NCBI GenBank assembly: GCA_934149515.1
Contig: CAKPFD010000005.1
Location: 696-64,695 of the forward strand
DNA length: 64,000 nt
From: an uncultured Bacilli bacterium
GTDB lineage: Bacteria > Bacillota_I > Bacilli_A > RF39 > UBA660
Direction: 5' to 3'
In this document: positions 10,724 through 57,005 of the stretch, in pieces
How positions within the stretch are numbered: position 1 is the stretch's first letter
How the letters are laid out: every line of letters starts with the position of its first letter
Made by a program: the position numbers and the translations under genes
Notes under the pieces: generated by a model
Seen by the model: the letters and a program-made list of their open reading frames with translations, nothing else
Databases searched by the model: none
Told to the model about the DNA's origin: nothing

Positions 10724-10879
10724 TGCTAAAATAATGTTAGAAAGATAAAGCGTAGGTGTTAGATATGAAAGTATTCTCTATAGTAAACTTAAAGTTAACC
10801 TGGGGGGGGGTGCTTTAATCAAACACTTTATCTTTTACCATGTCAAAAACATCAGGATATAAATGTATTCTGGTTTTTT
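10724..10879 (+). promoter_or_regulatory. Conserved leader, copy L1: extended -10, sORF with G9 tract, intrinsic terminator
   Basis: tgctaaaat (10724-10732). RBS taggtg plus ATG at 10765. G9 tract at 10802-10810. Stem atcagga / ttctggt plus T6 at 10851-10879. It aligns over about 150 bp with 59290-59440. Confidence 0.6.
10765..10818 (+). CDS. Leader sORF L1 (17 codons as read: MKVFSIVNLKLTWGGVL)
   Basis: RBS plus ATG. The peptide motif N-x-K-L-T/A-W-G/E-G-G is shared with the sORFs at 45549 and 59315. One additional G would extend it to MKVFSIVNLKLTWGGGALIKHFIFYHVKNIRI, stopping inside the terminator loop. Confidence 0.35.
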   Translation: MKVFSIVNLKLTWGGVL

Positions 10880-10903
10880 GGTGTTAAAAAAACAGAAACA
10901 GAT

Positions 10904-11269
10904 ATGAATACGATGTTCCAATGCTGTTATAAATTAACAAATTTAGATGTAAGTCATTTTGATACTTCTAAAGTGACAGATATGGGGTGGATGTTTTTCG
11001 GATGTATAGGTTTAACCTCTTTAAATGTTAATAATTTTGATACCTCTAAAGTAACAGATATGTCTTATATGTTTACTGATACTGCTGGTTTAACAAGCCT
11101 TGATTTGAGAAATTTTGATACATCTAAAGTAACTAATTTCCAAAAAATGTTTAAGAATAGTTCTAACTTAAAAGAGATTAAAGTAAGTAGTAAATGGGTA
11201 GTTTCTTCTTCTGCTACAATTACTGATATGTTTACAAATTGTGGTGTATCAAGTGTTACGACTGTTTAG
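10904..11269 (+). pseudogene. BspA-type leucine-rich repeat (DUF285) gene, 5'-truncated remnant
   Basis: Three-plus repeats of FDTSKVTDMxxMF...LTSLD(L/V). There is no signal peptide. The ORF begins inside a repeat unit, and repeat-like sequence (TDMNTMF) runs up to the junction with the leader. Confidence 0.55.
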
Positions 11270-45486: not shown

Positions 45487-45709
45487 TTGTTTATTCACTC
45501 TATTTTTGATATGATATATTCATAAGGTAGAAGAAAGTAGGGATGAGTATGAAGAGTATAATAAAAACTTGTCTAACCGAAACTGCAATTAATAGTAATC
45601 CCGATGAGTTGATTAGTATTAACTCAAAGTTAGCCTGGGAGGGGGGAATTTATCTAAGACAATAGAAATATCATTGTAGAATAAACAAGATAATATTATC
45701 TTGTGTTTT
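45487..45709 (+). promoter_or_regulatory. Leader, copy L2 (diverged): promoter, 38-codon sORF with interrupted G tract, palindromic hairpin
   Basis: ttgttt-17 nt-tatgat (45487-45515). sORF at 45549-45665. The tract reads cctgggaggggggaa (G3AG6). A 20-nt perfect palindrome acaagataatattatcttgt (45685-45704) is followed by gtttt. Confidence 0.5.
45549..45665 (+). CDS. Leader sORF L2 (MKSIIKTCLTETAINSNPDELISINSKLAWEGGIYLRQ)
   Basis: RBS aggg 6 nt upstream. It shares SIN-x-KL-A/T-W-x-GG with L1 and L3. Confidence 0.35.
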   Translation: MKSIIKTCLTETAINSNPDELISINSKLAWEGGIYLRQ

Positions 45710-45745
45710 AGCATTATATAAAAACTAAAAAGGGAGTAATAAAAC

Positions 45746-56339: not shown

Positions 56340-57005
56340 ATGGTAGAACTATTTGAAAAATTACATATTAAACCAAAAGATTTAACCCTTTACAACATTG
56401 CTTTTTCTCATTCATCTTATGCGAACGAACACAAAGCCAAAAAAGATTATGAACGCTTAGAATTTTTAGGAGATGCAGTGGTTGATTTAGTAGTAGCAGA
56501 TTACTTATACAACAACTATAGTGAAACAGAAGGAGAAATGACAAAAGTAAGAGCAAGTTATGTTTGCGAAAATGCCCTTTATACTTACTCAACGCAATTA
56601 GGCTTAAATCAATACATTAGAGTAGGGCATGGAGAAGAACATAGTGGTGGTAAATTCAAAAAAGCAATCGTTGCTGATATTTTTGAAGCTCTAATGGGAG
56701 CCATTTACTTAGATTTAGGATATGCAACAGTAAGAAATGTCATCTTAAAAATTGTCATTCCCTACATTGAAGATCCAACTATCTCTTTCTTTGAAGATTA
56801 TAAATCAGCTCTTCAAGAAGCAGTGCAAACAACCAAAAAAAGCTTATTTTATGAACTAATAGAAGAAAGTGGACCACCACATAATAAAACATTTACCATG
56901 CAAGTAAAAATTGACAATATCATCTATGGGAAAGGAACTGGCAATAGTAAAAAAGAAGCTGAGCAGGAAGCTGCCAAAAACGCTTTAGAAAAACTAGCCT
57001 CTTAA
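56340..57005 (+). CDS. rnc: Ribonuclease III
   Basis: ERLEFLGDAVV signature, a catalytic E in DIFEALMGAIYLD, and a C-terminal dsRBD (...GPPHNKTF...GKGTGNSKKEAEQEAAKNAL). Confidence 0.9.
   Translation: MVELFEKLHIKPKDLTLYNIAFSHSSYANEHKAKKDYERLEFLGDAVVDLVVADYLYNNYSETEGEMTKVRASYVCENALYTYSTQLGLNQYIRVGHGEEHSGGKFKKAIVADIFEALMGAIYLDLGYATVRNVILKIVIPYIEDPTISFFEDYKSALQEAVQTTKKSLFYELIEESGPPHNKTFTMQVKIDNIIYGKGTGNSKKEAEQEAAKNALEKLAS

Follow-up and report, generated by a model that had tools for sequence, protein, structure and literature searches.

The closest described systems are pil1 and pil3 of Streptococcus gallolyticus, where slippage of a GCAGA repeat in a leader-peptide gene moves the stop codon of that gene (Danne et al. 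2014, PMC3894217). As described there, expression is low when the stop is located 39-49 nt upstream of the terminator hairpin and high when it lies inside the hairpin or 4 bp upstream, and translation of the leader is required (PMC3894217). This appears to be the only leader-peptide phase-variable attenuator system that has been shown experimentally, and our literature search for a homopolymer version of it returned nothing beyond Danne et al. In the trp, his and pheST attenuators, a downstream intrinsic terminator is likewise governed by how far the ribosome has moved along a leader peptide. Poly-G contingency loci are found in Campylobacter and Neisseria, in genes or promoters, and upstream of the tpr genes of Treponema pallidum. 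In Clostridioides difficile, cwpV carries a phase-variable leader in which a DNA inversion decides whether the terminator forms. Related inversion/termination switches are listed in PMC12360218.

Here we analyzed a leader, L1, located in a stretch of 64,000 nucleotides (the window), together with its paralogs in the source genome and in related species. Our reading, to which we assign a probability of about 0.6, is that the L1 family would function as a phase-variable leader-peptide transcription attenuator that is genus-wide and present in multiple copies. As far as pil1/pil3 is described in PMC3894217, both systems consist of a promoter, a short open reading frame (sORF) that has its own ribosome-binding site (RBS) and carries a simple-sequence repeat, an intrinsic terminator and a gene for a surface structure. 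In both, the short frame stops tens of nucleotides upstream of the hairpin (39-49 there, 23-49 here) and the long frame ends at or inside it, and in both the low state would be that of most cells or loci. The two also differ. The repeat is a mononucleotide tract of G9-10 here and 13-22 GCAGA units there; in most copies here just a single frame extends to the hairpin, whereas both out-of-frame states do so in pil1; and a conserved helix that would sequester the Shine-Dalgarno (SD) sequence surrounds the sORF here, which is not among the pil1 features described in PMC3894217. Finally, 13-28 copies per genome head a repertoire of paralogous surface-protein genes, as against two pilus operons.

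The other known systems share fewer parts with the L1 family. As in the poly-G contingency loci, a G/C homopolymer of 8-11 nt would serve as a slipped-strand switch of surface antigens at several loci per genome; there, however, the tract lies in the frame of the structural gene or in a promoter spacer, while the L1 family carries it in an upstream leader ORF, where its effect would be exerted via the terminator. With cwpV the family would share a stochastic on/off choice for a surface protein, set in the 5' leader by premature termination, although cwpV depends on recombinase-driven inversion and, unlike the poly-G leader, has neither leader peptide nor repeat slippage. Compared with trp, his and pheST, the leaders have no runs of regulatory codons for an amino acid related to the cargo and no antiterminator helix, and the input would be a heritable change of frame instead of tRNA charging.

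The L1 leader and the gene remnant behind it comprise the following elements:

10724-10732, + strand: putative extended -10 promoter element TGCTAAAAT, with a predicted transcript start at about 10738-10741
10739-10750, + strand: 5' strand of the P1 helix, AGAAAGATAAAG; adjoins the SD of the sORF and is paired to 10826-10836 in both the MFE and the centroid fold
10753-10758, + strand: SD of the sORF as read from the sequence, TAGGTG, 6 nt before the ATG at 10765
10765-10818, + strand: leader sORF of 17 codons, MKVFSIVNLKLTWGGVL, in its G9 short-frame state; stop at 10816-10818
10802-10810, + strand: G9 homopolymer, the presumed slipped-strand switch
10826-10836, + strand: 3' strand of the P1 helix, CTTTATCTTTT; would be translated through in the long frame only
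10851-10879, + strand: intrinsic terminator predicted from the fold, hairpin 10851-10873 followed by T6 at 10874-10879
10860-10862, + strand: TAA in the hairpin loop, which would terminate the sORF at G10; the stop ends 12 nt past the start of the stem
10904-11269, + strand: remnant of a DUF285/BspA-type LRR gene, 121 codons (Pfam PF03382, E 2.5e-23)

A consensus promoter/terminator scan called neither the promoter nor the terminator of L1, since the former is an extended -10 element with a poor -35 and the hairpin of the latter, which is A+U-rich, has too few G-C pairs. The paralogs of L1 have TGnTAnnnT elements at the equivalent upstream distance (TGTTATGAT in L3, TGCTAAACT in C7/C18). The sORF of L1 would end in a different place in each of its frames: with G9, its stop ends 32 nt upstream of the hairpin; with one more G, the peptide becomes ...WGGGALIKHFIFYHVKNIRI and ends at the loop TAA, 12 nt inside the hairpin; with G8 or G11, it passes right through. 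The sequence GGAGGTGGA recodes the G tract without a homopolymer and leaves the peptide unchanged.

Two further copies are located in the window:

59287-59439, + strand: L3, the comparison copy; sORF at 59315-59410, G10 at 59352-59361, TGA abutting the hairpin
45531-45711, + strand: L2, a diverged copy with the interrupted tract GGGAGGGGGG and a covarying hairpin

A preliminary description had proposed that L1 is a paralog of the L3 leader, with a shared terminator core, a sORF that stops well before the hairpin and a frame restored by one extra G that ends in the terminator loop. All of this was borne out. The L3 leader, used as a query, matched G000:C5:11433-11579 (window 10738-10884) with 77% identity (E 1.7e-26). 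The window has just two copies of the 24-nt terminator core ATCAGGATATAAATGTATTCTGGT (10851 and 59410), against 0 expected, and AAAGTTAACCTGG is found exactly at 10791 and 59341 and with one mismatch at 45626, in L2. The only runs of seven or more G in the window are the G9 of L1 and the G10 of L3. A 10-nt indel after the tract separates the two copies and thus places them in different phases, so that the long frame is reached at G10 in L1-type leaders and at G11 or G8 in L3. In the vicinity of L3, genes for RNase III and RNase J (window 56340-57005 and 57531-59183) lie just upstream of the leader, whose hairpin is long and nearly perfect (-50 kcal/mol) and would be a plausible RNase III substrate.

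The frame geometry was examined in 60 distinct leaders from the source genome and its relatives. With few exceptions, a leader has two post-tract frames that terminate 23-49 nt short of the hairpin. The remaining frame usually ends 7-14 nt into it (with endings such as ...TFFHYDIRAG, ...FFFYHLKMIRI and similar), and several copies pass right through. Across the family, the long frame reads ...FYH.K.IRI with its stop in the loop. The frame now present is short in 57 leaders and reaches the hairpin in the other 3, L3 among them. The tract length that opens the long frame depends on the subfamily. It is G10 in the L1-type leaders (L1, C3:70434, C9:12610), in which G8 or G11 leads past the hairpin. 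L3 has a TGA abutting the foot of the hairpin, where its G10 frame ends, whereas its G11 or G8 frame ends in the loop. For most other species, two G more or one G less than the modal G9 gives the long frame. At C18:12204 and C7:30745, G10 yields only ...GGGTLIK, a peptide four codons longer. Consequently, G10 as the ON state is a local rule and not a family-wide one.

These results change the view of L1 and L3 as snapshots of two switch states, with G10 as the coding ON frame and the G9 of L1 as the alternative. The two copies are indeed in different frames, L1 with an early stop and L3 ending at the terminator, but L3 is the exception and G9 the default: G9 is found in 11 of the 13 uninterrupted leader copies of the source genome. 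The likeness of the peptides, WGGG(A/T)LIK, which had been taken as support for coding, follows from the near-identity of the nucleotides and is not independent evidence. We also asked how unusual a stop-free frame is over the 37-51 nt between tract and terminator. One such frame was not unusual, occurring in 61-91% of shuffles, with only 4 independent representatives available. Hence, the frame argument relies on consistency across homologs, which are not independent of one another.

The source genome (1.08 Mb, 29.7% GC, 22 contigs), that of an uncultured gut bacterium of the Bacilli, contains at least 16 leader copies, and most are followed by only an RBS and then a surface-protein gene with a conserved N-terminal membrane anchor. 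Leader copies account for 14 of the 15 genomic G/C runs of 8 or more, while about 0.5 such runs would be expected by arithmetic from the GC content. The tract is G9 in 11 cases, G10 in two (L3 and C18:12204) and G8 in two; it is interrupted in a few further copies (L2, C2:94856, C4:43093). The remaining long G/C run, C6:5794-5807 (G000, outside the window), is palindromic (CCCCCCGGGGGGGG), unrelated to the leader, and sits between a 1532-aa ORF and a 254-aa ORF on the minus strand. At C4:42994-43149 (G000, minus strand), a decayed leader with the tract GGGGGAGG has kept its hairpin and is not followed by a surface-protein gene, which makes it a second orphan leader.

An SD-like element and an ATG are present in all 16 source-genome copies analyzed for the sORF, as well as in the 60 leaders across species. 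Those 16 copies show at least four unrelated N-terminal sequences of the sORF, and the phase in which the ribosome would enter the tract is the same in all; ten of them share the C-terminus ...VN.KLTWGGVL. Within the genus, the motif T(T)AACCT followed by eight or more G was found in 41 of 53 species, with 1-28 copies each, and the reversed control pattern gave 0. A blastn search for the leader in 16 genomes outside the genus returned no match. The leader is also present in MAGs named 'Candidatus Onthousia' and 'uncultured Bacilli' from human (Hadza), chicken and rabbit gut. An Rfam search of the whole window at the gathering threshold gave no leader match, a tRNA being the only match, and an Rfam search of L3 at E <= 10 gave only chance-level matches (E > 1). 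Many of the genus-wide motifs lie 60-350 nt from the ends of MAG contigs, and contigs L139 and L169 end inside the tract; such assembly breaks could arise from paralogy or from tract heterogeneity.

Next, we compared tract lengths at orthologous loci from independent metagenome assemblies, anchored by the flanking proteins. The preliminary description had suggested comparing related strains for such variants, and these were seen at L3 and two further paralogous loci and not at L1. All five assemblies have G9 at L1, and four of them carry 1-4 SNPs elsewhere. At L3, eight have G10, one G9 and one G8, and the roughly 140 nt of flank compared are identical. The locus C3:70434, an L1-type leader in front of an intact gene, has G9 in three assemblies, G8 in three and G8A in one, and one contig ends in the tract; C7:30745 has G9 in eight and G10 in one or two. 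The tract is invariant at C2:80159 (G9 in 10/10), C9:12610 (G9 in 7/7) and C5:72745 (G9A in 10/10). Thus, at some loci the tract changes more rapidly than the sequence on either side, and each locus has a dominant tract state. Since L1 and these three other loci (7-10 assemblies each for the three) do not vary, switching would be too slow to scramble consensus sequences. As a control for assembly noise we used A/T homopolymers; two A8 runs were found, both invariant, which are too few to be useful. A separate case is L121 (ENA ERZ28615103), a 701-nt contig in which the upstream half of a C9/C3-type leader (TGTCATAAAGATAAAAGGTAGGTG) is joined to the downstream half of L1 and the remnant gene. 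It is either a product of recombination between paralogous leaders or an assembly chimera.

We then examined the structure of the RNA. The L1 leader folds with -39.9 kcal/mol (z = -3.9 against shuffles). In an alignment of 20 leaders, five of the ten pairs of the terminator hairpin show compensatory changes. The P1 helix, which the preliminary description does not mention, is formed by a purine-rich segment at or immediately before the SD of the sORF and a pyrimidine segment that directly precedes the terminator. With a MAFFT alignment as input, RNAalifold recovered the terminator and did not recover P1. We abandoned column-wise counting of P1 pairs because the purine and pyrimidine strands pair in shifted registers between subfamilies, and P1 was tested instead by duplex energies computed for each leader, with shuffle and partner-permutation controls. 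All 60 leaders have an equivalent helix; its duplex energy averages -14.8 kcal/mol, and z averages -3.2 against shuffled partners. Cognate partners outpaired permuted ones in 5000 of 5000 permutations, a count that is no true probability since the leaders are related. The P1 of L1 is below average in strength (z = -1.4). The variants of the helix covary: AAAGATAAAG/CTTTATCTTT in L1, AGATAGA/TCTATCT in L3 and GAAAGTAGGT/ACCTACTTTC in another species.

When a 30-nt ribosome mask was placed at the G9 stop, the folds kept the hairpin intact; when it was placed at the loop stop or at the G10 stop of L3, the hairpin was abolished. We found no antiterminator helix competing with the 5' arm of the terminator in free or ribosome-masked folds, in which P1 and the terminator coexist. 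The G tract itself was considered as a strand of a conserved helix. It pairs with a U/C-rich stretch of the sORF in the MFE folds of the L1/L3-type copies of the source genome, and this candidate was rejected as a general feature, since the pairing is absent in other subfamilies and species.

Regarding the cargo, intact copies have, within 20-35 nt after the T-run, an AAGGAG and a gene of about 590-690 aa with a conserved N-terminal anchor and DUF285 or DUF6273 domains. A surface-structure gene is therefore present at the paralogous copies and absent at L1, where the 121-codon remnant lacks an RBS like that of the paralogs as well as any signal or anchor sequence and begins within the repeats. 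It is 83% identical to the final 121 codons of the 640-aa paralog C3:70542-72464, and homology between the two loci resumes at window position ~10897. This points to a deletion of about 1.6 kb, by which the RBS, the start codon, the anchor and most of the protein would have been lost. The remnant is identical in sequence in 22 contigs from other samples. Since the cargo is a 3' remnant, the state of L1 has no surface-protein output, and as read from its sequence L1 is a relic of a switch, a leader that outlived its gene. At G8 or G11, the sORF of L1 would continue past the terminator, in frame, into the remnant (...FWFFGVKKTETDMNTMFQCCYKLTNL...; window 10765-11269); this fusion is probably a coincidence of the deletion junction. 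Two further observations concern the intact genes: a sortase gene (PF04203; C3:69646-70356) lies directly upstream of the L1-type leader C3:70434, which heads the intact 640-aa DUF285 protein, and the N-termini of the surface proteins (...VGVSYAAFSYT...) look like a specialised signal or anchor.

The anatomy of the leader matches that of pil1/pil3 as described in PMC3894217, and the masked folds reproduce the effect of stop position; for these reasons we take L1 as a poly-G version of that switch. By analogy, we infer that the leader is transcribed, its sORF translated, the transcript terminated and the gene switched on or off as follows. The promoter would drive a leader of about 140 nt, with the sORF and its own SD, the G9-G10 tract inside the sORF, and the intrinsic terminator before the RBS of the surface-protein gene. 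Slipped-strand gain or loss of a G at replication would shift the frame of the sORF. In the default frame (G9 in L1), the ribosome would stop just after the tract, 23-49 nt before the hairpin, allowing the terminator to form and leaving the gene off or low. In one frame, or in two in some copies, it would stop at the foot of the hairpin or inside it, blocking the hairpin, so that read-through would turn the gene on. P1 would pair the SD region of the sORF with the pyrimidine stretch and be unwound only by translation in the long frame. We hypothesize that P1 probably closes the SD once the lead ribosome has left, stopping re-initiation and insulating the terminator in the off state. By the same analogy, L1 would sit in the default off state.

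Could the leader instead be a fixed, non-stochastic attenuator, with a tract that acts at the level of RNA or translation and G9/G10 differences that are near-neutral? In that case the tract might cause slow GGG pausing or frameshifting or RNA-polymerase slippage, or might serve in pairing or in protein binding. Of the Gly codons in the genome, GGG is used least (3.65 per 1000), and a gene for tRNA-Gly(CCC) is absent. Moreover, the nucleotides AAGTTA(A)CCT plus G9 are kept across species in differing codon phases (KLTWGG, KVTWGG, KLPGGG, KVNRGG), which argues for a constraint on the nucleotides themselves; the assemblies agree in tract length at most loci, and the tract does pair within the sORF in the folds of source-genome copies. 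However, this pairing is not conserved in other species, the folds offer no alternative antiterminator pairing, copies with interrupted tracts look decayed, and tract length differs between otherwise identical strains. We therefore consider a fixed attenuator unlikely. A related proposal would leave the phase-variable attenuator in place and add to it: the poly-G might also be a programmed recoding site at the RNA level, a new cis-regulatory class, in which polymerase slippage, or frameshifting on GGG-GGG-GGG without tRNA-Gly(CCC), sends a tunable fraction of ribosomes into the long frame. We regard this addition as distinctly speculative and rather improbable. If it were true, 13-28 surface-protein genes would each get a graded, physiologically responsive output on top of the heritable on/off state, together with the SD-sequestering helix.

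It is also conceivable that each leader constitutes an independent gene, encoding a small RNA or the 17-aa protein, with its own terminator and merely located upstream of surface-protein genes. Promoter, structured RNA (z = -3.9) and terminator do make a complete unit, the C-terminus VN.KLTWGGVL is conserved, and L1 persists without its cargo gene in every sampled strain. Yet intact copies have only 20-35 nt and an RBS between T-run and start codon, leaving no room for a promoter, so transcription of the surface-protein genes has to pass the hairpin; what is preserved between species is the nucleotide sequence, with a peptide motif that shifts according to codon phase, and the Rfam searches gave no match. 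Taken together, this makes a stand-alone gene very unlikely. As to the difference between L1 and L3, homopolymers are error-prone and several contigs of other assemblies break inside or beside the tract, so that an assembly error, which the preliminary description had allowed for, had to be weighed. Against this, G9 recurs at L1 in all five assemblies and G10 at L3 in eight of ten, and one scaffold (L117/L128) carries both loci; an assembly artefact is thus scarcely credible. We retain the phase-variable attenuator as the reading that the anatomy, the frame geometry, their conservation and the observed polymorphism of the tract at paralogous loci support.

The leader family would be a poly-G variant of a known but rare kind of switch, whose switching effect is assigned here by analogy. 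The L1 copy itself matters little in this respect: it would show the default state and a leader that outlives its gene, and provides context instead of a new principle. For annotation, the switch would explain why G9-G10 tracts are kept at 30% GC and why assemblies break there frequently. More broadly, the family would extend the attenuator principle to a mononucleotide tract and to a whole repertoire of surface proteins, with up to 28 loci per genome of about 1-1.5 Mb. It would also bring this principle to the uncultured, Onthousia-like Bacilli of the human and animal gut, where it would be the main visible route of surface variation.
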